Source of the DNA: Planctomycetota bacterium
GTDB lineage: Bacteria > Planctomycetota > Planctomycetia > Pirellulales > Thermoguttaceae
Reading direction: 5' to 3'
DNA: 44,561 nucleotides
Assembly: GCA_025353625.1 (NCBI GenBank)
Contig: JANXOJ010000534.1
Coordinates: 1-44,561 of the forward strand
Part shown: positions 4,172-37,065 of the stretch, piece by piece
Numbering within the stretch: the stretch's first letter is position 1
Layout: the number at the start of each line of letters is the position of its first letter
Made by a program: the position numbers and the translations under genes
Notes under the pieces: generated by a model
Database searches by the model: none
Told to the model about the DNA's origin: nothing
What the model saw: only the letters and a program-made list of their open reading frames with translations

Positions 4172-4858
4172 TCAGGGCATCCGAACGCGGACTAGGGCTT
4201 CTAGGCGGTCGACGACTTGGTTCGGCTTTAGGCCGTCGGTAAGAAACAGGATGGCATCGCTCGCAGCGACGAGTGGGCCGACGTCGCGCGTTGCGTCCTC
4301 ATCGTCTCGTCGTGCTTGGGCATCCACAACCTCTTCCAGTGTGACCGCTTCACCGCGTTGCCGCAGATCGAGCAGGCGACGCTGGGCACGTTCTTCCGGG
4401 CTGGCGGTGAGAAAGATTTTACACTCCGCGTGGGGGAAGACCACGGTTCCCTGGTCGCGCCCTTCGGTAACGATGTCCTTTCCTTGGGCCTCGGCCTGTT
4501 GCAGCACGACGAGCTGCTGGCGAACCTCTGGATTGCCGGCCGAATGACGCGTAACTGCCGTAACTTCTTGAGACCGGACGGCGGCCGTCACGTCTTCTTC
4601 GTCGAGAAAAATGCGATCGGCATCGGTTCGTAATTGCAGTCGGCGAGTTAGCTCCGCCAAAAGTTGCGGGCGTTGCCAGTCGATGCCGCAGCGCAGCCCG
4701 GCGAGTGCAACGGCGCGGTACATTGCCCCGGTATCCAAGTAGTGAAACCCAAGCCGCCCAGCAAGAGCCAGGGCCACGGTACTCTTCCCCGCCCCGGCTG
4801 GTCCATCAATGGTGACAATCATAGCCTCTATTTTGCCACGGATAATCGCGTTCGGCAA
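4172..4858 (-). CDS. cmk: Cytidylate kinase
   Basis: P-loop IVTIDGPAGAGKSTVA followed by YLDTGAMYRAV. It lies upstream of rpsA, as in the conserved cmk-rpsA neighbourhood. The alternative start ATG at 4822 (MIVTIDGP) is at least as likely. Confidence 0.9.
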   Translation of the reverse strand: MPNAIIRGKIEAMIVTIDGPAGAGKSTVALALAGRLGFHYLDTGAMYRAVALAGLRCGIDWQRPQLLAELTRRLQLRTDADRIFLDEEDVTAAVRSQEVTAVTRHSAGNPEVRQQLVVLQQAEAQGKDIVTEGRDQGTVVFPHAECKIFLTASPEERAQRRLLDLRQRGEAVTLEEVVDAQARRDDEDATRDVGPLVAASDAILFLTDGLKPNQVVDRLEALVRVRMP

Positions 4859-5231: not shown

Positions 5232-6326
5232 ACCGAAAATTCTCTTCTCGAAGTGTCCAATGGATGCTCCGAACAGTTTTTTGGCAAGAATTTTCGCAAA
5301 CGGAAAAATATTTTCGCCTCCGTTCTCGATAGCACGACGCGCCCATTCACAACGCATCAAAGCATCTCGATTACAACGCGCGGCAGGTCTTGAAATTTGT
5401 TGCGTCGACATGCATTCAAGCGATCGACGATGCGCATTGAAGTTGCTGTCGAGAATCGCATCGAATCTGTTTTGAAGTGCGTCCGTCGCTTTGCGTTCGT
5501 CGATGGAGGGTCGCGTATCGATCGAGCATCGCATGGGGTTCGTCCGACGCATCAACGAGAGTGATTTGTATCGTGCAATTTCATCGCGGATTGCGGCGCG
5601 ATACGATGCATCATGCGGTCGCTATTATTATCGCAACTGATTGCAAAACAAGACTTTATGGCAACGACTCGTGGTTGCAAGTCGAGACGTTTAGACGCAC
5701 GAAGCGTCTGCCAATTGATGTGTGCAGCGCAACGGCGAAGGAGCCATCACCATGTGAGTTTTTCTTCATCGCAAGATGCGATAAGCGATCCAACGGAGCC
5801 GCTTCGTGAGCGTCGCTCCACGTTGCGATGCGCGTCGATGAGCGCGTTGTAAAGTGTCGCGTTCAAACGAACAGCGCACGTTGCAAGGAAGCAGCGACGA
5901 TGCAAGTTTTGCGTTGGCTGAAACGTACTTCGCGACGTTGCACTTGATGTCTTGAAATGTCGCGCGTAGGACGTTCGCGACGAAGAAAATTTTGGGATTG
6001 AACAAGAATTGAGCTTGAATAAATTTTGCAACGCGATAACATTTAGAGAGTTGGGGCCTTGGAGGCTCTACTCTGCGAGTGCTCTTGTGAAGGAAGAGAT
6101 GCTCGCGGGAAGAAGTTTTGGAGCGAGTGACGACATGAAATCGTTCGGCTTCGTGTCGACAGCAACATGTTGCAACATTCGATTCCTTGTTTCCGGAGTG
6201 CATTGTCGGAGTCTCAAACCTTTTTTTGATTGGCGAGGTGCCTTAAGGTGCCGGGTCGATGAATGGCGGGTTGGGAAACGAACGACAAATGACGCTCCCA
6301 AATCGAGTTTGTTAGGAGAACGTACT

Positions 6327-21316: not shown

Positions 21317-21658
21317 GTGAATATCTGGAAACTGTTCGCCACCGCTGTCGTCGTTTGGATGCTTGCTGCGGCTGCCTGGGCCGATGAACCGAAGCCTGCC
21401 GATCCGCCGTGCGTCCGCTGCAATGCACCGCTTTGCATCAGTGCCTGCAACTGTCCGAAATCGATGCCGTGCCTGGGCTGCCCGCCGTGCGGCGGAATAT
21501 GCGTGCCCTATTGTCGCAAGCCGATGCCGTGCCTTTCTTGTCCGCCGTGCGGCGGCATTTGCGTACCCTATTGCTGTAGGCCCATGCCGTGCCTCTGCCA
21601 GCCGATCGTGCGGCCGGATAGTTGCCAGTTGCCGTCGTGTTATGGAGCCGGGAAGTAG
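21317..21658 (+). CDS. Secreted Cys/Pro-rich protein with tandem 20-aa repeats
   Basis: A GTG at 21317 gives the signal peptide [22 protein letters not shown]. The mature part includes [40 protein letters not shown] and PMPCLCQP. About one residue in four of the mature part is Cys. The upstream part of the ORF from 21227 is not needed. Confidence 0.55.
21461..21615 (+). repeat. Tandem 60-nt (20-codon) coding repeat, about 2.5 copies
   Basis: Units at 21461-21520 and 21521-21580 are near-identical (..ATGCCGTGCCT...CCGCCGTGCGGCGG.AT.TGCGT.CCCTATTG..). A truncated third unit starts at 21581. Confidence 0.8.
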
Positions 21659-21863
21659 TCTATGGAGTGCGATGGCTTATGGCCGCTTTTCGTCGGGCCG
21701 AAATCATTCGCCGGACGTCTTTGCTCGGACGACGATTCTTGAAAAGCCGAGGCAAGCCCGCTCTCCAAGGCCCTACTTGGACGTACCCGCTAATCTGCTA
21801 CACTGTGGGCTGCAAAATCAACCGTCGTGCTTGTGCAAAACGCCCTGCTCATGGAGTCTTCCA

Positions 21864-23498
21864 ATGCCCACCAGCCCCTTGACTTCTCTCCCCGCCTGGA
21901 AAGCCTTACAGGCCCATTGCGAGCAAACTCGTAGCGTACATTTGCGGGAGTTGTTCCAGCAAGATGCCGCGCGCGGCGAGCGGCTGACGCTCGACGCCAT
22001 CGGCATCTACCTCGACTATTCCAAGAATCGCGTCGGCGACGAGACCTTGCGGCTGCTTGGACAACTGGCCGAACAAGCGGGCCTTCGCCAGCGAATCGAC
22101 GCCATGTTCGCCGGAGAGAAGATCAACGTCACGGAGAAGCGGGCCGTGCTGCACGTGGCCCTTCGCGCGGCACGCGGCAGTTCGATCGTGGTCGATGGCG
22201 AGAACGTCGTGCCCCAAGTACATTCCGTGCTCGACAAGATGGCTGGCTTTTGCAATCGCATCCGCAGCGGCGATTGGAAAGGCCACACCGGCAAGCCGAT
22301 CCGCAATGTTGTGAACATCGGCATCGGCGGCTCGGACCTAGGCCCCGTCATGGCTTACGAGGCATTGAAGCACTACAGCACGCGGGCAATCGCGTTCCGC
22401 TTCGTATCCAACATCGACGGCACCGACTTCGCCGAAGCGGTCCACGACCTGCGGCCCGACGAAACGCTTTTTATTGTTGCGTCCAAGACGTTTACAACAT
22501 TGGAGACGATGACCAACGCCCACACGGCGCGCGATTGGCTCTTGGCCGGACTCGGCGGCGATGCGTCGGCCACTGCCAAGCATTTCGTCGCCCTTTCCAC
22601 GAATGCCAAGGAAGTCGCCGGCTTTGGCATCGACACGATGAACATGTTCGGCTTCTGGGACTGGGTTGGCGGTCGCTACTCGATGGATGCGGCGATCGGG
22701 CTTTCCACGATGCTCGCCATCGGGCCGGAGAACTTTCAGGCGATGCTGGCCGGCTTCCGCGCAATGGACCAGCATTTTCGCACGGCACCTTTCGACGAGA
22801 ACCTACCGGTGCTGCTGGGGCTGCTCGGCATCTGGAATAGTAATTTCCTTGGGGCCGAAACGGTTGCCGTCCTGCCCTACGACCAATATCTGAAGCGGTT
22901 CCCGGCCTATTTGCAACAGCTCACTATGGAGAGCAACGGCAAGCGCGTGACGCTCGATGGCAAGCCCGTGGACTATCAGACCAATCCCATTTATTGGGGC
23001 GAGCCGGGCACCAACGGTCAGCACTCGTTTTATCAATTGATCCACCAAGGCACGCGGTTGATCCCGTGCGATTTTATCGCCTTCCATCAATCGCTCAATC
23101 CGGTTGGCCGCCACCACGCCATGCTGATGGCCAACGTCTTTGCTCAGGCGGAAGCGTTGGCCTTTGGCAAGACGGCCAACGAGGTCGAGACCGAAGGAAC
23201 GGCCGATTCGCTCGTACCGCATCGCGTTTTCCCCGGCAATCGCCCTTCCAATATGATCCTTGCCGAAAAGCTCACGCCGGAAATACTCGGCAAGTTGGTC
23301 GCGCTGTACGAGCATATCGTTTTCACTCAGGGAACGATTTGGCAAGTGAATTCGTTCGATCAATGGGGCGTCGAACTCGGCAAAGTTCTCGCCCAACGGA
23401 TCATACCGGAATTGGAAAGCGCGAAAGATTCGATACTTGGCCACGACAGTTCAACGAATCGCTTGATCGTTCGCCAACGCACTCATCTCGCGCCGTGA
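21864..23498 (+). CDS. pgi: Glucose-6-phosphate isomerase
   Basis: Motifs [21 protein letters not shown] and [15 protein letters not shown] are present. The homologous region begins at [15 protein letters not shown] (ATG at 21864). The 167-codon upstream extension of ORF 21363..23498 overlaps the Cys-rich gene out of frame. Confidence 0.93.
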
Positions 23499-26239: not shown

Positions 26240-29200
26240 ATGAGGGTTCTCCGTGAAAGGGCCGCCATGTTCAGGCAGCCGAACGCCGCATTGCAGAGCC
26301 ATCGCGTGGTAATCTCCGCGTTCGTCGCGTTGGTGCTTATGTTCTGCTCGGTCGGGGTTGCGCAATTTCCCGGCGATGGGCCCATGCTGGGGCCGGATGG
26401 CCAACCCGTGCCCACCAATGCCGCAATGCAAGGCACGGCGATGCCCGGAAGGGGCGTTCCCGCGATACCGCAGGAGGAGATCGTCGTCGATGTTCGCGTC
26501 GAGGGCAATCGAACCATCGCTTTGGACAAGATTCTTTCTCACATTCGCACTCGAACCGGCCGACCGTTGAGCAATGAGCAGGTCGAGCAAGACGTTCGCG
26601 CGCTGAATAAGATGGGCGTGTTCTTGATTGTCCGCACGCGACGGCAGGAAGTTCAAGGCGGCTGCATCATTATCTTCCAGGTTGCCGAGCGGCCGCTGCT
26701 CCAAGAGGTGGCAATCGTCGGCAACGACACGTATTCCACGAAAACTCTGAAGAAGGAAGCCGACATCAAGGTCGGTGACGCAGCCGATCCGTTCGCGGTC
26801 GAAAACGGCCGCCGGCGGATCGAAGATTACTACCAGCGCAAGGGCTACAGTAAAGTCCGCGTGACGATTTTGGAAGGCAATAAAGCGGGCGACCTGCGGG
26901 CGATCTACGTTGTCGATGAAGGCAAACTACAAAAGGTCTATCAAATTAACTTTGTCGGTGCTCAGTTTGTCAGCGCGGCACGATTGAACACGGTTGTTGC
27001 CTCGCGATCACCCTGGCTCACCACTTTTGGCGGACATGCCGACCCGACCTATTACCTACTTGCCAGCGCGGTCGATCGCAAGTTGATCGATGAAGATGTC
27101 GCCAAGCTGACGGCCTATTATCGCGGCTTCGGCTTCTTCCATGCTCGCATCGGTCGCGAGCTGGAATTCAATGAGAACCAGCAATGGCTTACGATTACCT
27201 TCGTGATCGATGAGGGGCCGCGCTATGTGGTGCGCAATACGTCCTATTTGGGCAACACGAAGATCGCGACGGAAAAGCTGGCCAAGGATGCCAAACTGCT
27301 GGGCGGTCAGTTCTTCGACCAGAACCAACAGAATATCGATCTTCAGGCCCTTCGCGATCAGTACGGCGGCGAGGGATACGTGTTTGCCAAGGTCGAGGCC
27401 GACAACCGCTTCCTGGAAGAGCCCGGCAAGCTCGACGTTGTTTATAGCGTCGATGAAGGTGCTCGATATCGCGTCGGTCGCATCAACATTGAGATCAAGG
27501 GAGAAAATCCACACACGCAAATTACCACGGTGCTCAATCGCTTATCGTTCAAGCCGGGCGATGTGGTCGATCTACGCGAGATTCGCAGTAGCGAGCGGCG
27601 TTTGAAGGCTTCAGGGTTGTACAAAGTTGAACCGCAAAAAGACATCGGGCCCAAAATTGTCTATTCGCCGCCGGAAACGGAAGATAAAGAGACCGCGATA
27701 GCCGGCCGTCGCCGCACGAGCTACTATTCCGCACCAGGCTGCGGCGTGCCGATGGCACCCGGCGAGCGTTGCGTCGACCTTTATGTCAGTGGCGACCTCA
27801 ATGATCTGCCGGAAGCGGGCAATCGAGTTCAGCAGCCGCAACAACAGCCGCCGCAACAACAGCCGCAGACCTATAGAACATACGAAACGAATGGGGCGAC
27901 TCAGGGGGCGCCGCAGGGACAAGTTCAACGTTCTGGAGTGGTGCGGACGCAGTATGGGCCGAGCGATGCTTGGAACGCGCCGCAACAAGACTATGCCCCC
28001 GCCGCGCAGCCCTATCCGACGGCTCAACCCTATCCGACCGCGCAGCCTTACTCGGCCGCGCAGCCATACAACGCGCAACCATACAACGCGCAGCCATACT
28101 CGACCGCGCAGCCCTATCCGCCACAGCAAGGCAATGAGACCGCCGGAGCCTACAACCCGCCGGCCGCAGTTGCTTATTCCCAGGGAAATCCCCCGGCACA
28201 AGGTTATCCGGCACAAGGCTACCCAGCACAAGATAATCCAGCACCTCAGAATTATGCTTCGCCTGCCGCCGGTTATGCAGCTCCGGCCTACAACAATGCC
28301 GCACCGGCGACCGCCAGCGGCTATGCCAACAGTGCCGATCCGAACAATCCCGCCGCAACCGGTTCCGGCGTCTACTCGCCCGGCGGGCCGGCCATCGATC
28401 GACCACCCATCGCCAGTCTAGCCGCCGGCAACGGCCTTTACGGCGATCCTTCGCCGACGATGATTCCCACGCCCACCGGCGAGCCGCTGCGCGATCTGCC
28501 CTTCATGATCCAGCCGGAAGAAACGCAAACGGGCCGACTGATGTTCGGCGTCGGCGTGAACTCCGACGCCGGCGTTGTCGGCAACGTAACGCTCGACGAA
28601 CAGAACTTTGACTGGACCCGTCTTCCGACAAGTTGGGCCGATATCGTCGATGGCAAGGCGTGGCGAGGGGCAGGGCAGAAGTTCCGCCTGGAACTGGTGC
28701 CCGGCACGCAGGTCCAACGCTACATGGCCAGCTTTCAGGAACCCTATTTGTTCGACCTAGGCAGCAACCCGGTCGGATTGGGACTCAGTGGATACTATTA
28801 CCAACGACTCTACACGGAATGGACGGAAAGCCGCTCCGGCGGTCGCGTTAGCTTGAGCTACCAGTTTACGCACGACCTAACCGGCACCCTAGCCTTTGAA
28901 GGCCAGGATGTCTCCATCAAGAATCCGGAGTTCCCGGTACCCGATCTTTTGGCCGCCGTGGGCCACAACCAACTCTACAGTTTTTCGGCCCAGCTGGCCC
29001 ACGATACCCGCGACAATCCTTTCATGGCCTCCGAAGGTCACTTGATTCAGGGATCGCTTGCGGAAACGATTGGCACGTACCAGTACATCAGGGCATCGCT
29101 CGAAGCTACTCAATACTACAAGATTTTCCAGCGTGCGGATCGTTCCGGCAATCACGTGCTCAGCCTATCGATGCGCGGAAGTTATTCCGGTGACGACACG

Positions 29201-29575
29201 CCGATCTTCGAGCGATTCTACGCGGGCGGTTTCTCCACGATTCGCGGCTTTGCCTTCCGCGGAGTCACGCCTCGCGATCCCGTCTACGGTATGGGTGTTG
29301 GAGGCGATTTCCAACTGCTCTCCACCGTTCAATACATGTTCCCCATTACCGCCGACGACATGCTCAAAGGCGTAGTTTTCGTCGATGCCGGCACCATTCA
29401 GCCCACCGTGAACCATTGGGTCGACAAAGTCCGCGTGGCCCCCGGCTTTGGTCTGCGCGTCTCAATCCCCATGATGGGCCCGGCACCGATCGCCTTGGAC
29501 TTTGCCTTCCCGATCAGCAAGGAAGACGGCGACGTGCAGCAGATATTCAGCTTCTTCGTTGGGTTTAATCATTAA
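26240..29575 (+). CDS. bamA: Omp85/BamA-family outer-membrane protein with POTRA repeats and a long Q/P/Y/A-rich insert
   Basis: POTRA-like repeats are present (IVVDVRVEGNRTIALDKI..., LQEVAIVGNDTYSTKTLKK..., INFVGAQFVS..., RINIEIKGENPHT...). The C-terminal beta-barrel shows alternating aromatic patterns and the Omp85 motif RGF (FSTIRGFAFRG). The start may be the ATG at 26267. Confidence 0.85.
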   Translation: MRVLRERAAMFRQPNAALQSHRVVISAFVALVLMFCSVGVAQFPGDGPMLGPDGQPVPTNAAMQGTAMPGRGVPAIPQEEIVVDVRVEGNRTIALDKILSHIRTRTGRPLSNEQVEQDVRALNKMGVFLIVRTRRQEVQGGCIIIFQVAERPLLQEVAIVGNDTYSTKTLKKEADIKVGDAADPFAVENGRRRIEDYYQRKGYSKVRVTILEGNKAGDLRAIYVVDEGKLQKVYQINFVGAQFVSAARLNTVVASRSPWLTTFGGHADPTYYLLASAVDRKLIDEDVAKLTAYYRGFGFFHARIGRELEFNENQQWLTITFVIDEGPRYVVRNTSYLGNTKIATEKLAKDAKLLGGQFFDQNQQNIDLQALRDQYGGEGYVFAKVEADNRFLEEPGKLDVVYSVDEGARYRVGRINIEIKGENPHTQITTVLNRLSFKPGDVVDLREIRSSERRLKASGLYKVEPQKDIGPKIVYSPPETEDKETAIAGRRRTSYYSAPGCGVPMAPGERCVDLYVSGDLNDLPEAGNRVQQPQQQPPQQQPQTYRTYETNGATQGAPQGQVQRSGVVRTQYGPSDAWNAPQQDYAPAAQPYPTAQPYPTAQPYSAAQPYNAQPYNAQPYSTAQPYPPQQGNETAGAYNPPAAVAYSQGNPPAQGYPAQGYPAQDNPAPQNYASPAAGYAAPAYNNAAPATASGYANSADPNNPAATGSGVYSPGGPAIDRPPIASLAAGNGLYGDPSPTMIPTPTGEPLRDLPFMIQPEETQTGRLMFGVGVNSDAGVVGNVTLDEQNFDWTRLPTSWADIVDGKAWRGAGQKFRLELVPGTQVQRYMASFQEPYLFDLGSNPVGLGLSGYYYQRLYTEWTESRSGGRVSLSYQFTHDLTGTLAFEGQDVSIKNPEFPVPDLLAAVGHNQLYSFSAQLAHDTRDNPFMASEGHLIQGSLAETIGTYQYIRASLEATQYYKIFQRADRSGNHVLSLSMRGSYSGDDTPIFERFYAGGFSTIRGFAFRGVTPRDPVYGMGVGGDFQLLSTVQYMFPITADDMLKGVVFVDAGTIQPTVNHWVDKVRVAPGFGLRVSIPMMGPAPIALDFAFPISKEDGDVQQIFSFFVGFNH
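28004..28125 (+). repeat. Tandem 15-18-nt coding repeats (AQPY-x units) inside bamA
   Basis: The units read AQPYPT, AQPYPT, AQPYSA, AQPYN, AQPYN, AQPYST, AQPYPP. A second short repeat, GYPAQ GYPAQ, follows at about 28198-28230. Confidence 0.8.
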
Positions 29576-31512: not shown

Positions 31513-32007
31513 CTATATCGGCTCGTCGCTAATGCGGCCTTGCTTGAGCTTGCCCGGCTCGTCTTTGGAAATATCGAATCGCTGCGGACGCTCGCGATCC
31601 GTGGGAATCGGCTTCTGCCGGGCCGAACGACGTCCTTCCAAACCGGCTCGTTCCAAGAGGCTCTGGCCGAAAATCTTTTCTTCGGAGACTTCCGGCGGCG
31701 GCGGACCCACGGCACCCAAATCGACCGGGGCGTATTTGACCTCATAGGCATGCTTGGCCACCCAAAGAATATCGCCCGGATCGACCCGCTTTTCCGTGAC
31801 CCGGTTTCCATTCACCTTGACGCCGTTGCGGCTGTTCATGTCGCGGACGTACCAGAATCCAGATCGGATAAAAAGTTCGCAATGATGGGAGGAGACGTTG
31901 GAAAACCGCAGCACGATATCGCAACTCTCGCGACGGCCCACCAGGAGCGTTTCTTTCAACAAGGGAATGGGATCGCCACCACCTACCGGGAGTAGTTCGC
32001 CGTACAT
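31513..32007 (-). CDS. FHA domain-containing protein
   Basis: The FHA core is LLVGRRESCDIVLRFSNVSSHHCELFIRSGFWYVRDMNSRNGVKVNGNRV, followed by a basic disordered tail. The stop codon (31513-31515) directly abuts the rsgA ATG (31512). Confidence 0.85.
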   Translation of the reverse strand: MYGELLPVGGGDPIPLLKETLLVGRRESCDIVLRFSNVSSHHCELFIRSGFWYVRDMNSRNGVKVNGNRVTEKRVDPGDILWVAKHAYEVKYAPVDLGAVGPPPPEVSEEKIFGQSLLERAGLEGRRSARQKPIPTDRERPQRFDISKDEPGKLKQGRISDEPI

Positions 32008-32074: not shown

Positions 32075-32286
32075 GGCAGGGTGGGTGTCCAGCATTCCGT
32101 TGCATCCGCATCCGACGCCAAGAGCCACCAAGTAACGATATTTTCCCGGTAGTCGGTTTTCACTGCGACTATCACCACCCGTTCCAATATCCACAACTTC
32201 CACTTTTAGTCTAATAGTCGGCCATCGGCGCGTCAACCCACGGCAAGTGCAGGCGAACTGCAAAGTCCGGGGGCGGGTCCATTTTT

Positions 32287-32600
32287 GGTTCATCCGTATC
32301 AGGACCGCGCGCGGAAAGCGTTACGTCGTAAGCGGCTGCGCCGCTGGATTTTTTTAAGCATGGGGCGGGTGTCCAATCGGATTCAAGAAAACGGCCCCTG
32401 GTGATGAGAATTATCGGGGGCCTAGACGCGCCATGGGCGCACCGGAGCCTGGATATCCCTTGTCAGGTTGCGTCCCTGCGGAGCCCGAAGGTGTTTCTCC
32501 AGCCAGTCCCCTTGTAACCGAGTTGGCAAACGGTAGGTAAGTACTATTGGACACCCGACTTATGCCTTGAAAATCCCTCCGGGCGAAGCCTGCCGTGCGT
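32287..32600 (+). repeat. Copy 1 of a paralogous ~300-nt element (partner at 34501-34815)
   Basis: It aligns by hand with copy 2 in direct orientation. Shared blocks are GGT.CATCCG, GCGCGGA..CGTAAG, AGCGGCT..GGATTTTTT, GTGTCCAAT, AAAACGGCCCC, the identical 27-mer TGGATATCCCTTGTCAGGTTGCGTCCC (32450-32476), GTTTCTCCAG, and ATTGGACAC..GACTTATGCCT.GAAAATCC. Confidence 0.85.
32366..32557 (+). ncRNA. Candidate structured RNA core, copy 1 (unclassified)
   Basis: A 12-bp closing helix (32366-32377 / 32546-32557) encloses the core. An internal hairpin at 32393-32422 has a GAGA loop and G-U pairs that form only on the + strand. A small hairpin GCGCC-ATG-GGCGC is also present. The helices are preserved in copy 2 with compensatory changes. 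The strand and the RNA nature are inferences from only two sequences. Confidence 0.35.
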
Positions 32601-32639
32601 GTCAAGCTGGCGAATCGGGGTCAGGTAGAGACCAAAGCA

Positions 32640-32912
32640 CTAGCTTTGCCCAAAGTTCTCCGCAAACAGCTCTTCCAGGGCCGTTAGGGCGGCTTCGGCT
32701 TGCTCGCCTTCGGCCTCCAATGTCAAGCAAGTTCCTTTGCAGGCCCCGAGCGTGAGCAGTTGCAGAATGTCGGTGGCGTCCGCTTGACCATTTGGCGCGA
32801 CAATCACGACTTTACATTTAAATTGATGGGCAAGAAAGAATACCGCGCCGCTCCCTCGTAGGTTCAGCCCACCGGGGTTCGTTACGACGACATTCCGTGA
32901 ACTCATTTCCAT
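32640..32912 (-). CDS. HPr-like (PTS phosphocarrier fold) protein lacking the canonical His15 and Ser46
   Basis: The 90-aa product aligns by eye with HPr. TNPGGLNLRGS aligns with TAPNGLHTRPA, and NGQADATDILQLLTLG aligns with NGKSASAKSLFKLQTLG. A C-terminal EAEGEQAEAALTALEELF resembles SAEGEDEQKAVEHLVKLM. The active-site His position reads Asn and the regulatory Ser position reads Asp. Confidence 0.7.
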   Translation of the reverse strand: MEMSSRNVVVTNPGGLNLRGSGAVFFLAHQFKCKVVIVAPNGQADATDILQLLTLGACKGTCLTLEAEGEQAEAALTALEELFAENFGQS

Positions 32913-32985
32913 CTATCCCAATCCCTTGGCCGACAATCTCAGTTTAGACCACGTTGCGCCGCTGCGGCAGGACCTTCAACATATA

Positions 32986-33047
32986 TTCCGGGGACACAAT
33001 ACTTAATTCATGGATGATGCCGATAATTTAGTATTGTGTCCCCGGAA
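32986..33047. repeat. 62-nt palindromic element, copy 1
   Basis: The sequence is TTCCGGGGACACAATACTTAATT-CATGGATGATGCCGAT-AATTTAGTATTGTGTCCCCGGAA. It forms an 18-bp perfect stem, then one mismatch, then 4 more bp, with a 16-nt loop. Copy 2 at 34043-34104 is near-identical. Confidence 0.9.
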
Positions 33048-33201
33048 CCCTCCCCGTGCTAATCTCGCTATGCCTTGGATCTAACAAATCCCTTGCTCCG
33101 CGTCAACAATTAAGTTATGTGTCCCGGAATTCGGTGGTGACCGCTTACACTTTACGTGTAGTACGAGGAACAGTACTTTCCGCGCGGCCCAGTGAGGACT
33201 G

Positions 33202-33684
33202 CTACTTGAATTCATTCAGAGCGACGCCGACCAACGCTATGCACAGCGGAAAAAGCGAAATTACAAACGCGATTACCGCAGCCGTTCGCACCCAGTTGGG
33301 CGACTTTCGTGCGAAGAACCATGTTACTGCTGCAAAAGCTGTTCCGAGGAAAGGAAAGATGCAGATCAAGAGCGATATGATAGCGAGGCATTTCACGATA
33401 AACGAGTCACGGAAGCTGACGAAGTGCCGCAAGTCACTTTCGTGACAGTTTCGCAAATCCTCGCAGGAGAGGGTCGACATAAGTTTGGCACCGCAATTCC
33501 CGCATTTGACGAATGTAGAACGGTTGCTGTCAAGAATGGGAATGCAGTGAAAAAGCATCGGTGTTTCTGTTAGGTCGTACGCCAAGGATGGAACGCGGGT
33601 GTCGCCGCATGCCCCGCAGTCGACGTTAATCGGCAAGTTGGCGGTGCATTCATAGCGGAAGCCCAAGATCAAATGCTCTAGCAT
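33202..33684 (-). CDS. Zinc-ribbon-like (2x CxxC) protein with two C-terminal TM helices
   Basis: The 160-aa product from the ATG at 33684 begins MLEHLILGFRYECTANLPINVDCGACGD...VKCGNCGAKL. Two hydrophobic helices follow (IVKCLAIISLLICIFPFLGTAFAAV and AAVIAFVISLFPLCIALVGVAL). GC is about 50% by hand count, below the neighbouring genes. No family was recognised. Confidence 0.55.
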   Translation of the reverse strand: MLEHLILGFRYECTANLPINVDCGACGDTRVPSLAYDLTETPMLFHCIPILDSNRSTFVKCGNCGAKLMSTLSCEDLRNCHESDLRHFVSFRDSFIVKCLAIISLLICIFPFLGTAFAAVTWFFARKSPNWVRTAAVIAFVISLFPLCIALVGVALNEFK

Positions 33685-33688
33685 GATG

Positions 33689-33847
33689 TCACTCCCACGC
33701 CACGACGACCGGCTTATCGATGGAAACGCCCAGCCGCGCGGCGGCGTTGTCGCCGACGATGGCCAACTCCAGGCGATACGTGGAGCCGATGAGGCCCACC
33801 AACATGCCGGGTGCCTGCTCGCCAACGGATAGGAATTTCGTGTGCAT
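33689..33847 (-). CDS. 52-aa protein with weak CsrA-like beta-strand pattern
   Basis: The product is MHTKFLSVGEQAPGMLVGLIGSTYRLELAIVGDNAAARLGVSIDKPVVVAWE. Its stop lies 2 nt before the ATG of the next gene, so only 33685-33686 separate them. RLGVSIDKPVVVAWE matches E. coli CsrA RIGVNAPKEVSVHRE at 7 of 15 positions by my eye alignment. The RNA-binding arginines are not conserved. Confidence 0.3.
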   Translation of the reverse strand: MHTKFLSVGEQAPGMLVGLIGSTYRLELAIVGDNAAARLGVSIDKPVVVAWE

Positions 33848-34001
33848 GAGCCTATTCCAAAGGAAGTGGAGAGTCAAGCAGGGGTACGCAAATGTGACGG
33901 GCACCAAAGCTGACGAGTTCAGGAGGACTGGGTAGATTCGTGGCATGGCACGCGTCGCAAGACATGCTCCTGGAGGAACGGTTTTCCACGTCTTGAATCA
34001 T

Positions 34002-34028
34002 GGTGCGGGTCGCCGCACCCTTTTTATT
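34002..34028 (+). terminator. + strand rho-independent terminator-like hairpin
   Basis: Stem GGTGCGG (34002-34008) / CCGCACC (34013-34019) has a 4-nt loop and is followed by CTTTTTATT. No T-run follows on the minus strand. No + strand gene is evident upstream. Confidence 0.45.
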
Positions 34029-34042
34029 CTGCACCCTTTTTA

Positions 34043-34104
34043 TTCCGGGGACACAATACTTAATTCATGGATGACGTTGATAATTTAGTATTGTGTCCCC
34101 GGAA
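34043..34104. repeat. 62-nt palindromic element, copy 2
   Basis: Both arms are identical to those of copy 1. The loop is CATGGATGACGTTGAT, differing at 3 loop positions. It lies in the same orientation, 1057 nt from copy 1. Confidence 0.9.
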
Positions 34105-34500
34105 CTCCATCGCGGAAAATCCTCGACGTATGTAACAAAGCGCAACTGGATGCAATTCAGAGACTTAAAATTGAGGTTCATCCGCCTGAAGCTTGCGCAA
34201 CGCTTTCACTGCGAACCCGGAGGGATGCAAATGCGAGGCGGGGTGCCCGCATTGACCCTGGAGAGGTCTCCAGCAATTAGCCGGTGGTAAGCGCAGCACC
34301 ACCACCGGTTTCGATGCACGATACAACCTTTTGACCCTGGAGGGAAGAAGAGGGGTCGAAGCGCGGCTGCGACCCATCCGGGGTCGGAAGGCACGCCCGA
34401 ACCGCTAACCCCGGGTGCGCTGCGCGACCCGGGGCTAATCGCTTATATCCCTCCGGGATTGGCTATTGACCCCGTTTTCTGCGGGGATATATTGATTTCA

Positions 34501-34815
34501 GGTACATCCGACTGAAGAGTGCGCGGACGTAAGTTGTTATGCAGACAGCGGCTTTGCGGCGAGGATTTTTTGAGGAATATGTCCAGTGTCCAATGGGATT
34601 CTCAAAACGGCCCCGGCGGATCGAGTACCAGCCGGGGCCTCAGCCGCCATTGGCGCACTGGAGCATGGATATCCCTTGTCAGGTTGCGTCCCCGCAGAGC
34701 CTGACTCCGTTTCTCCAGACCGTGCCAGTATAGCTGGGAACCAATCTCGGATGCAACCACCATCACCATTGGACACTGGACTTATGCCTCGAAAATCCAC
34801 GGGCCAACGGCCCGC
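34501..34815 (+). repeat. Copy 2 of the paralogous ~300-nt element (partner at 32287-32600)
   Basis: It shows the same shared blocks as copy 1. The identical 27-mer lies at 34666-34692. Confidence 0.85.
34581..34781 (+). ncRNA. Candidate structured RNA core, copy 2 (unclassified)
   Basis: A 16-bp perfect closing helix pairs GTCCAGTGTCCAATGG (34581-34596) with CCATTGGACACTGGAC (34766-34781). The internal hairpin GGCCCCGGC...GCCGGGGCC lies at 34609-34639. A small hairpin CGCC-ATT-GGCG is also present. Confidence 0.35.
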
Positions 34816-34880
34816 GCATTCTTGAGCCAGTTGAACCGTTTTTCAGTTGATCAATCCGGTTCGCCGGTCCGATTGCGTGA

Positions 34881-36941
34881 TTAGCGCTTGTAGAGCGGAT
34901 TTTGATCCTGGGGGAATTCCGTGGGTTTGGGTTTGGCGGCGTCGAGGGGAGTGACGAGAATGTTGTCGAAGAGGGCGGTGATGCGGTTGGCGGGGGCGTC
35001 GCCGGTAAGGAAGCCGACCATGCCTTTGGTGTAGAGGGTGTCCTGCTGCGTAATGAGTTGCGTGTCATCGACAAAGGCGGTGATGGTCGTGCCGGAGAAG
35101 CGGAGTTTGACGTTGTGCCATTGGTCGGGGGCAAAGTTGTCGGCCTTGGCGGCGGCGAGTTGGGTGCCGGCGCCAGCGTTGTTGCCTTGCTTGGCGGCGA
35201 AGAGGGCAACGTTGCCGTCGGAGGAAACGCGGAGGTAGTAGGCTTTGGGGACGGTGCCGTATCCGGTGCCGACGTTGTTGACGCGGCCCATGACGCCGGC
35301 GTAGCCGCCGCTTTCAAGAAGGATGTCGGCGGAGACTTCGTAGTCTTTCCAGTCCTGGTCGCCCAGGATGGTGTAGGGCATCCACTCGGGGGCCCAGGAT
35401 TGGGCACGTTTGTCGATGACCTGGCGGAGGCACTTGCCGTTGCCGTCGGGGCGGTCGGCGATTTCGAAGATGCCGACGATGTCGGCAGTGTAGTGGGGGA
35501 GGTAGCCGAAGGATTTGGCGTCGGCGTAATGTTCGAAGGTTTCGAGGTATGGCAGCGGGAAAGATTTGGCGGCAGGGACGTCGGGGAAGGCACCTTTTTG
35601 CTGGCCGGTGGTGGTGGAGATGGAGTAGATGCACTGCGGGTCGAGGGTGATGGAGAATGTGCCATTGGAGGGCATGATGTCGGGCTGGCGGATGAATTGA
35701 TCGGCTGCATTGCTGCGCCAGACGCAGAGTTTGGCAGTGGAGAGGCCATTGCTGACGGTGAAGACGAGGGTTTGGGGGGCTTTGGCGCCCTTGGTTTGGG
35801 CGATGATTGAGTAGTCGGATTCGGGGGATTTGAAGGTGACGAAGGTGCCGCCGCCGGAGAGAGTGCCGCAGGCGTTGTTGAGATAGTGCCAGCCGACTTT
35901 GACGAATTGGCCGTAGTGGGCGTAGCCCCAGAGGTTGGGGCGGGTGGCGTAGTGGCCGCTCCACGGAGAGTTAGCGATCATGGCGGAGGGTTGTTCGGGG
36001 TAGGACTCAATGGGGTAGACGGAGGCGACGAGGTACCAGTTGACGATCTTGGTGACGCCGCTTTTGAGGAAGTTCTCGTTGAAGGCCTGGACGAGGCTGA
36101 TTTCGCAGTCGAAGCCGTCCTTGTAAACGTGCTCTTCGGTGTTCCAGATGGGCTTGTTCATGGATTCGAGCAGTTGGCGGATTTCGGCAGACGCGGGGGC
36201 GGTGGCGATGGTGTGGTTGCTGACGGCATCGACCGAGTTGCGCAGAACCTCATCGGTGGCCATGGTGGGGATCCAGTTCCATTTGTCTCTTTGCCAGTTG
36301 TCGAAGGCGTGGACTTTGACGTTTTGCAGGCCATTGGCGTTGAGGGTGGTCTTGAGTTTCTTGACGAAGTCGATGTTAACGCCTTTTTCGTTGCGGGTGC
36401 CGATGGCGTCGAGGTCGAGGCCGTGCTCGGACTTGAGGCCCTTAATCCATTTGACGTAGTAGTCGGCCATGTCCTGGGACCAGAACTGTCCGTTGCCGAC
36501 CCAACCGGGGCAACCCCACGCGCAGGCGTCGAGGGTGATGGCGGGGTTGCGTTTCTTGGCTTCGGCCATGATCCACCACTCGTAGCCGCGGTAGTAGTTT
36601 TCATCGGTTTTGGTATGCATGTGGCTGGGCTCGGCGCCTTGGGTGGCGTTGCAGTCGCCGGGGACTTCGACCAGCAGGGTGAGCATGGAGGCGCCGAATT
36701 TGGGTTTGAAGAGCAGGTCGAGGACCTGGGAGCGCTGGGGTTCAGGGTAATCCTTCAGGAGGACGGAGGTCGCGCCGCCGCCGCTGACGGCACCAACGCC
36801 GTCGAAGCGCGGGCCGCCGGCATCGCCCTTGAGTGACACGGCCTGGTCGCCAAAGGCTGGCAGTGCAAAGCCAGCGATCGCCAAGCTGATGAGGGAAGTA
36901 ACGAGCGCGATGGGTATTCTTGTTTTGTTGATAGGTTTCAT
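34881..36941 (-). CDS. Secreted glycoside hydrolase family 59 (galactosylceramidase-like) with C-terminal lectin-like domain
   Basis: The product resembles vertebrate GALC as I recall it, along its whole length. [38 protein letters not shown] parallels [65 protein letters not shown] and SPWSGHY also match. The C-terminal part is [18 protein letters not shown]. The signal-peptide start [14 protein letters not shown] is at 36941. Confidence 0.85.
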   Translation of the reverse strand: [686 protein letters not shown]

Positions 36942-37065
36942 GTCGTGATCCTTGCCGAAGAACTTCATCCGCTGGTGGAGGAACAACGCGGAAGTTTGCT
37001 GCAACGCTGTGCGGTTAATTTTGAAACAGGAGCGAAGCGAATTCGTGAAGTCGCTTCGTTGTAGG

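Follow-up and report, generated by a model that had tools for sequence, protein, structure and literature searches.

The analysed stretch of DNA, called the window below, is the whole of contig JANXOJ010000534.1 (44,561 nt), and every count given for the window covers the entire contig. Two near-identical hairpins, 32986-33047 and 34043-34104, and the DNA between them are the subject of this study; a first-pass annotation had read them as possible borders of a mobile two-gene cassette. The contig reads as chromosomal DNA of a Pirellulales planctomycete and carries the housekeeping genes rpsA, cmk, rnc, nadE, aspS, miaA and pgi. Searches with the glycoside hydrolase family 59 (GH59) and RsgA proteins of the window returned relatives at ≤79% identity only, RsgA being 75-79% identical to its counterparts in metagenome-assembled genomes (MAGs) of Planctomycetia. 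The FHA-RsgA gene pair is kept in 47 of 80 relatives and synteny extends past position 32007 in none of the 80, so that no empty site can be defined. Compared loci from other genomes are designated by L-numbers.

Each hairpin consists of two 23-nt arms around a 16-nt loop and folds into a perfect stem of 18 bp, followed by one T.T mismatch and 4 further base pairs. The arms of the two copies are identical at all 46 positions and the loops at 13 of 16, the three differences being transitions; both loops lie in the same orientation. The repeated unit comprises 65 nt, since the copies also share TA at the left edge and C at the right, and the two units are in direct orientation, 1057 nt apart. 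The stems, the number of loop differences and the shared orientation had been described correctly in the first-pass annotation. The calculated folding energies are -35 to -37 kcal/mol (z about -7 to -8). The 18-mer TTCCGGGGACACAATACT, contained in each arm, is found at four places in the window, where 0.02 would be expected, and exactly five copies lie within edit distance 3 of the 25-nt consensus described below, all of them in 32983-34106; shuffled sequences give none. One of the five is a solo copy on the minus strand, noticed earlier as a degenerate solo right arm 60 nt inward of the first hairpin, which is real and stands at edit distance 3 from the consensus, while 30 shuffles yielded no match even at edit distance 4. 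As had also been seen, no T-tract comes after the hairpins, whichever strand is read, and the combination of GC-rich stem and U-tract of an intrinsic terminator is absent; the sole T-runs are part of a small terminator-like stem (34002-34019) ahead of hairpin 2. No target-site duplication flanks either hairpin. Hairpin 1 is situated between the gene of the 161-aa protein p161 and an HPr-like gene, on their coding strand. The coordinates of all features of the interval are detailed in Table 1.

Table 1. Features of the hairpin interval. TIR, terminal inverted repeat; IRL, left TIR; ORFan, open reading frame (ORF) without known relatives; TIRYT, gene family defined in the text.
Feature	Position	Strand	Description
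Hairpin 1 (TIR doublet)	32986-33047	+	Forward TIR 32986-33008, 16-nt loop, inverted TIR 33025-33047; repeated unit 32984-33048
Stub L	33054-33071	-	ATA (ex-ATG) GCG AGA TTA GCA CGG = (M)ARLAR, the first 6 TIRYT codons
Stub L, promoter-like layout	33078-33106	-	TIR, G, TTGACG (33101-33106), 17 nt, TAGATC (33078-33083), 6 nt, start codon
Stub L, left TIR (IRL), degenerate	33108-33131	-	41 nt from the ex-start codon, the canonical distance; solo arm of the first-pass annotation
p161, 161-aa ORFan	33202-33687	-	CxxC...CxxC motifs, hydrophobic C-terminal part
DUF62 / SAM hydroxide adenosyltransferase, 3' fragment	33689-33835	-	Nucleotide homology 33689-33823 (last 135 nt); amino acid homology to 33835
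Stub R, promoter-like layout	33910-33938	+	CTGACG (33910-33915), 17 nt, TAGATT (33933-33938), 6 nt, ATG
Stub R	33945-34025	+	ATG at 33945; MARVARHAPGGTVFHVLNHGAGRRTLF = first 27 TIRYT codons, then into hairpin 2
Tandem duplication, GCACCCTTTTTATTC twice	34015-34045	+	16-nt period; copy 2 enters the first 3 nt of hairpin 2; overlaps the stem 34002-34019
Hairpin 2 (TIR doublet)	34043-34104	+	Forward TIR 34043-34065, 16-nt loop, inverted TIR 34082-34104; repeated unit 34041-34105

Every arm is one copy of a 25-nt motif, AA-TTCCGGGGACACAATACT-TAATT, whose consensus was obtained from 155 aligned instances. In a scan of one genome per species the 18-mer was found in more than 119 loci among the matches listed, where about 17 would be expected by chance according to our own estimate. 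These loci belong to Planctomycetota, Alpha-, Gamma- and Deltaproteobacteria, Omnitrophota, Desantisbacteria, Clostridia, Saccharibacteria, Armatimonadota and others. A metagenome scan with the left arm and the start of the loop gave seven loci, none related to the window; the hairpin had no match among plasmids (PLSDB), and a search of the literature for its sequence found nothing. At about 14 of the listed loci the motif lies upstream of an ATG, at 35-41 nt and in a few cases at 67-129 nt, with a canonical distance of 38-41 nt. The gene that follows encodes a protein of 203-234 aa (about 225 aa) starting with MARLARIV..PHHVTQRGNRR. These proteins match Pfam Y1_Tnp above its cut-off (E 1e-9 to 1e-14), and with the NCBIfam model REP_Tyr_transpos, for the transposases associated with repetitive extragenic palindromes (REP-associated tyrosine transposases, RAYT), they score 64-77 bits, below the equivalog cut-off of 80. 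The HUH motif, N59-H60-x-H62, and the catalytic Y120 are invariant in their alignment. The motif recurs inverted at the stop codon, or a few nucleotides from it, in L007, L010, L072, L049 and L115, and is present at both gene ends in L007, L010 and L072; gene 3' ends or fragments adjoin it in L049, L115, L023, L036, L038, L057 and L106. Since the motif precedes the start and stands inverted at the stop of a Y1_Tnp gene, it is the TIR of a unit of about 0.75 kb encoding a RAYT-like enzyme. A relationship of the hairpins to Y1 transposases and REP-like elements, proposed in the first-pass annotation, is thereby borne out.

RAYT-like genes flanked by long TIRs have been named TIRYT, and the units formed by them TIRtrons (Di Nocera et al. 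2013, PMC3733652). Many TIRYT TIRs share the core GGGGWSAS at about equal distance from the gene, and they form moderately abundant families of repeats occurring as single, dimeric or grouped copies (PMC3733652). The arms of the window carry the core GGGGACAC, which fits GGGGWSAS. Most TIRYTs correspond to TnpA_REP subclass 2.1, for which a C-terminal helix-turn-helix (HTH) or DnaA_C domain has been reported (Quentin et al. 2018, PMC6006769). The family associated with the arms is probably this subclass, and no C-terminal HTH (Bac_DnaA_C, HTH_23 or HTH_28) was matched in Pfam at E <= 0.01 in three of the associated proteins.

A second sample, 80 TIRYT genes (loci L213-L292), was selected by protein similarity and is therefore unbiased by the motif. 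In these loci the upstream TIR differs among protein clades with the core GG[GT]GAC kept, being AAAAGGGGACATTCTACTTTT in many planctomycetes and AATTACGGTGACAGTGCACTTAATTGAC in many Alphaproteobacteria. The layout in many of the loci is a TIR, a TTGACA-like box, about 17 nt, a TAnnnT box, 6-7 nt and the ATG, which, if the boxes are a promoter, suggests a leaderless or near-leaderless transcript. TIRYT-type genes are also present in cultured isolates (Mesorhizobium, Sphingomonas asaccharolytica, Novosphingobium and Bosea), so the family is no metagenome artefact. The listed TIR copies are mostly extragenic: 19% lie inside long ORFs, which cover 76% of the bases (p = 3e-65). The first 5-12 nt of the TIR are repeated in tandem as truncated copies (for instance aattccgggtaattccgggtaaTTCCGGGG...), here called stutters, ahead of 44 of 141 TIR instances (31%), against 9-14 of 141 (6-10%) in controls. 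Examples are L010 3570-3616, L043 1000-1045 and L039 2098-2130, and the tandem duplication entering hairpin 2 is a related feature. The stutters may mark the site at which the enzyme cuts or joins DNA; the cut predicted from them would fall inside or directly after AATTCCGGG. Internal deletion of a TIRYT gene is seen in L047. Two further arrangements were recorded in L075, a Planctomycetaceae MAG. Upstream of an intact TIRYT gene, at 5470-5640 (minus strand), a full TIR sits inside the loop of a longer and older hairpin built from a variant TIR (GTTCCGGTGACACGATACC...), and at 4700-4800 the 3' end of this gene with a degenerate right TIR is tandemly duplicated. A grouped TIR array is present in L033, a Desantisbacteria MAG, with six direct 18-mers in 200 nt (1515-1711; start-to-start distances 23-51 nt).

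Two truncated starts of TIRYT genes, stub L and stub R, are found in the window. Stub L retains its degenerate left TIR, the promoter-like layout of the family and six codons, the first being no longer a start codon; it is followed by GGAGGG (33048-33053) and then by hairpin 1, and by eye 17 of 21 nt match the gene start of L010. Of 960 ORF segments taken from the window, stub R matches the TIRYT profile best (E = 0.001, against 1.7 for the runner-up), and it is 52% identical to the start of the L075 TIRYT (E = 1e-6). The start-codon pattern AT[GA]-GCN-Arg-NTN-GCN-Arg is found on both strands of the window only in these two stubs, with about 0.02 occurrences expected by our arithmetic. In register the stubs are 56% identical (30/54 nt), a level reached by none of 20,000 random segments. 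They point outwards, away from each other, each toward its own hairpin. Both stop before the HUH motif and are consequently non-functional, and the remainder of a TIRYT gene is absent past hairpin 2. The earlier statement that the window holds no RAYT gene is valid for intact genes and has to be amended for the two RAYT-like starts abutting the hairpins. Two stretches were considered as a left TIR of stub R, 33835-33854 (12/20 matches) and 33881-33891 (GGGGTACGCAA); since each differs from the consensus by 6 edits or more, neither is claimed. A weak TIRYT-like match at 34068-34205 on the minus strand (E = 1.6), partly encoded by the hairpin itself, was rejected.

The interior is a patchwork, formed by an ORFan and a gene fragment and bounded by two decayed TIRtron starts. 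The ORFan, p161, had only itself as a match among 5.8 billion proteins and no match in PHROGs or NCBIfam; it may be a real gene, because its GC content at third codon positions (GC3, 0.64) exceeds GC1 and GC2. The fragment, carried by the ORF upstream of p161, matches PF20257 at profile positions 45-83 of 84 and shows 83-85% nucleotide identity to the full genes of L203 and L204. Nucleotide homology ends exactly at the stop codon on one side and at 33823 on the other. In relatives the full DUF62 gene lies downstream of gatB (in L204, of amidase/GatA-like fragments) and upstream of an aminotransferase gene, and the rest of it is absent from the window, including the DNA beyond hairpin 2. The two genes reported previously are therefore one ORFan and a 135-nt 3' fragment. 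In the ENA contigs L203, L204 and L205 many genes (gatA, DUF62 and the aminotransferase gene) are split into adjacent fragments, which look like long-read-assembly frameshift errors and not like true pseudogenes; this accounts for the "short" DUF62 homologues in the protein database. The low GC content noted earlier for the interval applies to part of it: about 50% in roughly 32850-33600, but 56-59% in 33450-34050 and 54.0% in 33048-34042 as a whole, against 58.3% in the window. No second copy of the interior was found in databases.

Outside the window, TIR doublets with loops of 1-40 nt are present in 15 of the 119 listed loci, as stand-alone units of 45-90 nt. A Planctomycetia MAG (L022) contains two dispersed doublet units of 84 nt, 96% identical, 6.7 kb apart and differing mainly in the loop. 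An ordinary response-regulator gene of L089 has a doublet on either side, the loops of the two being inverted and each doublet adjoining an intrinsic terminator.

The locus is a relic cluster, composed of two TIR doublets, one degenerate TIR, two transposase-gene stubs, a gene fragment and an ORFan. Each hairpin is best explained as a head-to-head TIR doublet of a TIRYT, that is, RAYT-like Y1-HUH, unit: a gene-less miniature TIRtron made up of left TIR, 16 nt and right TIR. We assign this reading a probability of about 0.82. Such a doublet hairpin would be analogous to a REPIN or to a miniature inverted-repeat transposable element (MITE). As non-autonomous elements, the hairpins would serve a TIRYT enzyme as single-stranded DNA substrates; by comparison with IS608 TnpA and E. 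coli TnpA_REP, the enzyme would recognise the hairpin formed by the single strand, bind to it and cleave at the hairpin base. The DNA between them would be rearrangement debris and not cargo. If transcribed, the duplex of 22-23 bp would be a likely processing or stabilising site in a p161-HPr transcript.

The cassette proposed in the first-pass annotation, in which the direct hairpins are the ends of one element and about 1 kb of cargo is moved by a Y1 transposase acting in trans, draws on the near identity, direct orientation and spacing of the units, on the lower GC content of part of the interior and on an ORFan without relatives, as is often found in foreign DNA. It does not fit an interior in which a 135-nt gene fragment lies together with two stubs of transposase genes facing outwards, and of which databases hold no other copy. 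Doublets elsewhere, moreover, stand alone or, as in L089, are inverted around an ordinary gene, and the ends of IS200/IS605 elements, with which the hairpins had been compared, are non-identical and imperfect, whereas here the same doublet occurs twice. Mobilisation of the interval between the hairpins is thus regarded as very improbable, and the likeness to IS200/IS605-type ends is not supported. A role in the host, by which the hairpins, whatever their origin, act mainly as RNA or DNA structures for neighbouring genes (a processing or stabilising site, an insulator or a protein-binding site), would agree with their high stability, with the position of hairpin 1 between p161 and the HPr-like gene on the coding strand, with an RNase III encoded in the window and with the doublets of L089, which lie beside intrinsic terminators at gene ends. 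A U-tract and an Rfam family are lacking, and the same sequence in unrelated contexts across phyla is better accommodated by a selfish repeat than by a locus-specific regulator; as the main explanation a host function therefore appears improbable. The whole window contained no Rfam family at gathering thresholds, with only sub-threshold chance matches in 32200-34900, and no tRNA or tmRNA.

The origin of the hairpins may also lie in simple decay. They would then be the surviving right ends of two decayed TIRtrons, immobile and functionless, with their identity due to gene conversion or chance. Each hairpin indeed lies 3' of a TIRYT stub, internal TIRYT deletions are known from L047 and the contig holds no intact TIRYT. 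The stubs, however, are 56% identical and one has lost its start codon, yet all 46 arm positions match each other and the cross-phylum consensus. All three changes fall in the loops, for which the chance under uniform decay is (16/62)^3, about 0.02 by our arithmetic, and relative to their stubs the two loops run in opposite directions. Pure decay in place is accordingly considered unlikely, although it deserves more weight than the alternatives above. From the contrast between arms (46/46), loops (13/16) and stubs (only 30/54), we infer that the hairpins are either younger insertions or have been kept intact by sequence-specific use, and this is favoured over fossils formed in situ. Their position 3' of the stubs, and the direct loops beside inverted stubs, could have been caused by insertion of doublets into TIRYT genes followed by deletion; joining by the enzyme of ends from different copies, or flipping of loops through arm exchange, would be other possible causes.

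Several observations weigh against the miniature TIRtron. The 25-nt TIR motif was found in none of 80 related Pirellulales loci (about 1.1 Mb), and the 44.5-kb contig contains no intact TIRYT or RAYT gene. Stub R has nothing resembling a left TIR within edit distance 5. Among 17 doublets examined in other genomes none lies beside a gene stub, so that the arrangement of stub and hairpin is without an explanatory precedent. Direct loops combined with inverted stubs do not fit a simple history of two decayed copies. Finally, no biochemistry of TIRYT proteins was found in the literature.

A bolder extension may be considered, according to which the doublet, and not the transposase gene, is the persisting, REPIN-like replicator of an ancient cross-phylum TIRYT system, maintained by the enzyme without change of sequence and preferring TIRYT genes, so that it parasitises the autonomous element; a direct pair could then carry intervening DNA to new sites. 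Doublets landing in TIRYT genes, or recombining with them, would explain why both hairpins cap truncated TIRYT starts. This proposal is speculative and, in our opinion, quite doubtful.

With the hairpins read as TIR doublets, an apparent "mobile two-gene cassette" becomes an annotated scar. This kind of element, TIR dimers derived from TIRtrons, is already known and little studied, and the present locus adds one case. A single 25-nt TIR variant is unchanged in Planctomycetota, several proteobacterial classes, Omnitrophota, Desantisbacteria, Clostridia, Saccharibacteria and others. Together with the layout TIR / -35 / 17 / -10 / 6-7 / ATG, this variant provides concrete substrates for the study of DNA recognition by this branch of HUH enzymes.

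Other features were recorded in the vicinity and elsewhere in the window. A repeat designated rep2 is present in two direct copies of about 240 nt (32320-32585 and 34540-34800), 81-84% identical, with a terminal stem of about 30 bp (GGATTTTTT..GGTGTCCAATGG / CCATTGGACACC..AAAATCC) that shows two compensatory changes between the copies. They bracket the HPr-like gene and the entire hairpin interval. A short form with the arms only is found in L170, and a diverged copy in L203 adjoins an ISL3 transposase gene. The repeat has no match in Rfam and looks like a MITE or a structured RNA. The HPr-like gene (32640-32912, minus strand; PF00381, E = 1e-19) is isolated from other phosphotransferase system (PTS) genes, and the best homologues of its product among 5.8 billion proteins are only 65-68% identical; the closest (68%) was of no use as a guide to synteny, its contig being about 1 kb long. 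The GH59 (galactocerebrosidase-like) gene (34881-37004, minus strand) has its best species-representative relatives outside Pirellulales, in MAGs of Opitutae (65%) and Tepidisphaeraceae (60%), and this gene and a neighbouring rhamnosidase gene may have been acquired horizontally. The phosphoglucose isomerase ORF (21363-23498) has an N-terminal extension of about 217 aa, within which a 60-nt tandem repeat at 21452-21571 encodes Cys/Pro/Gly-rich units; its true start codon may be further downstream. Periodic repeats of 18 nt (CCGCGCAGCCCTATCCGA...) at 28002-28143, within a 1111-aa ORF (26240-29575), encode a Pro/Gln/Tyr-rich stretch of low complexity.

In comparison with known systems, the family shares with the IS200/IS605 group of insertion sequences (IS608, ISDra2) a Y1 HUH enzyme of the Pfam Y1_Tnp superfamily and the lack of target-site duplications, and recognition of a hairpin in single-stranded DNA is presumed for both. 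The ends of those elements are unlike each other, being imperfect subterminal hairpins without TIRs, in contrast to the identical perfect doublet found twice here. Their TnpA has about 130-150 aa and is often accompanied by tnpB and omega-RNA, which were not seen here: no tnpA or tnpB lies between the hairpins, and the window gave no match to the Rfam families of omega-RNA or HEARO. Bacterial MITEs such as NEMIS, RUP and ERIC resemble the doublets as short, non-coding, intergenic units composed of two TIRs of a parent element and forming a strong hairpin. Classical MITEs, however, derive from insertion sequences with DDE transposases and have target-site duplications, which do not flank these hairpins.

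The likeness to the REPIN/RAYT system (Bertels & Rainey 2011, PMC3116915) is closer in architecture. Two inverted short repeats with a short spacer form a long hairpin in both; the units are extragenic, occur in multiple copies with conserved arms and variable loops, and are associated with a RAYT-type gene bordered by copies of the repeat. Unlike a REP, the 25-nt monomer is without an internal palindrome beyond AATT...AATT and without a GTAG or CGTC tag, and the associated protein scores under the NCBIfam RAYT equivalog cut-off (64-77 vs 80 bits). The TIRtrons share with the related loci a RAYT-like Y1/HUH gene between long TIRs at a fixed distance. Further likenesses are the core, to which GGGGACAC conforms, the dispersal of TIRs also as single, dimeric and grouped repeats, and a distribution over many phyla, Planctomycetes included. 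The window differs in holding two gene stubs only, of which stub L keeps its left TIR at 41 nt. The missing HTH match is a second difference, bearing on subclass 2.1 only and not on the TIRYT definition of Di Nocera et al. Finally, where the published descriptions give an 8-nt core, the loci compared here provide a 25-nt consensus and a layout of TIR, -35 box, -10 box and ATG.

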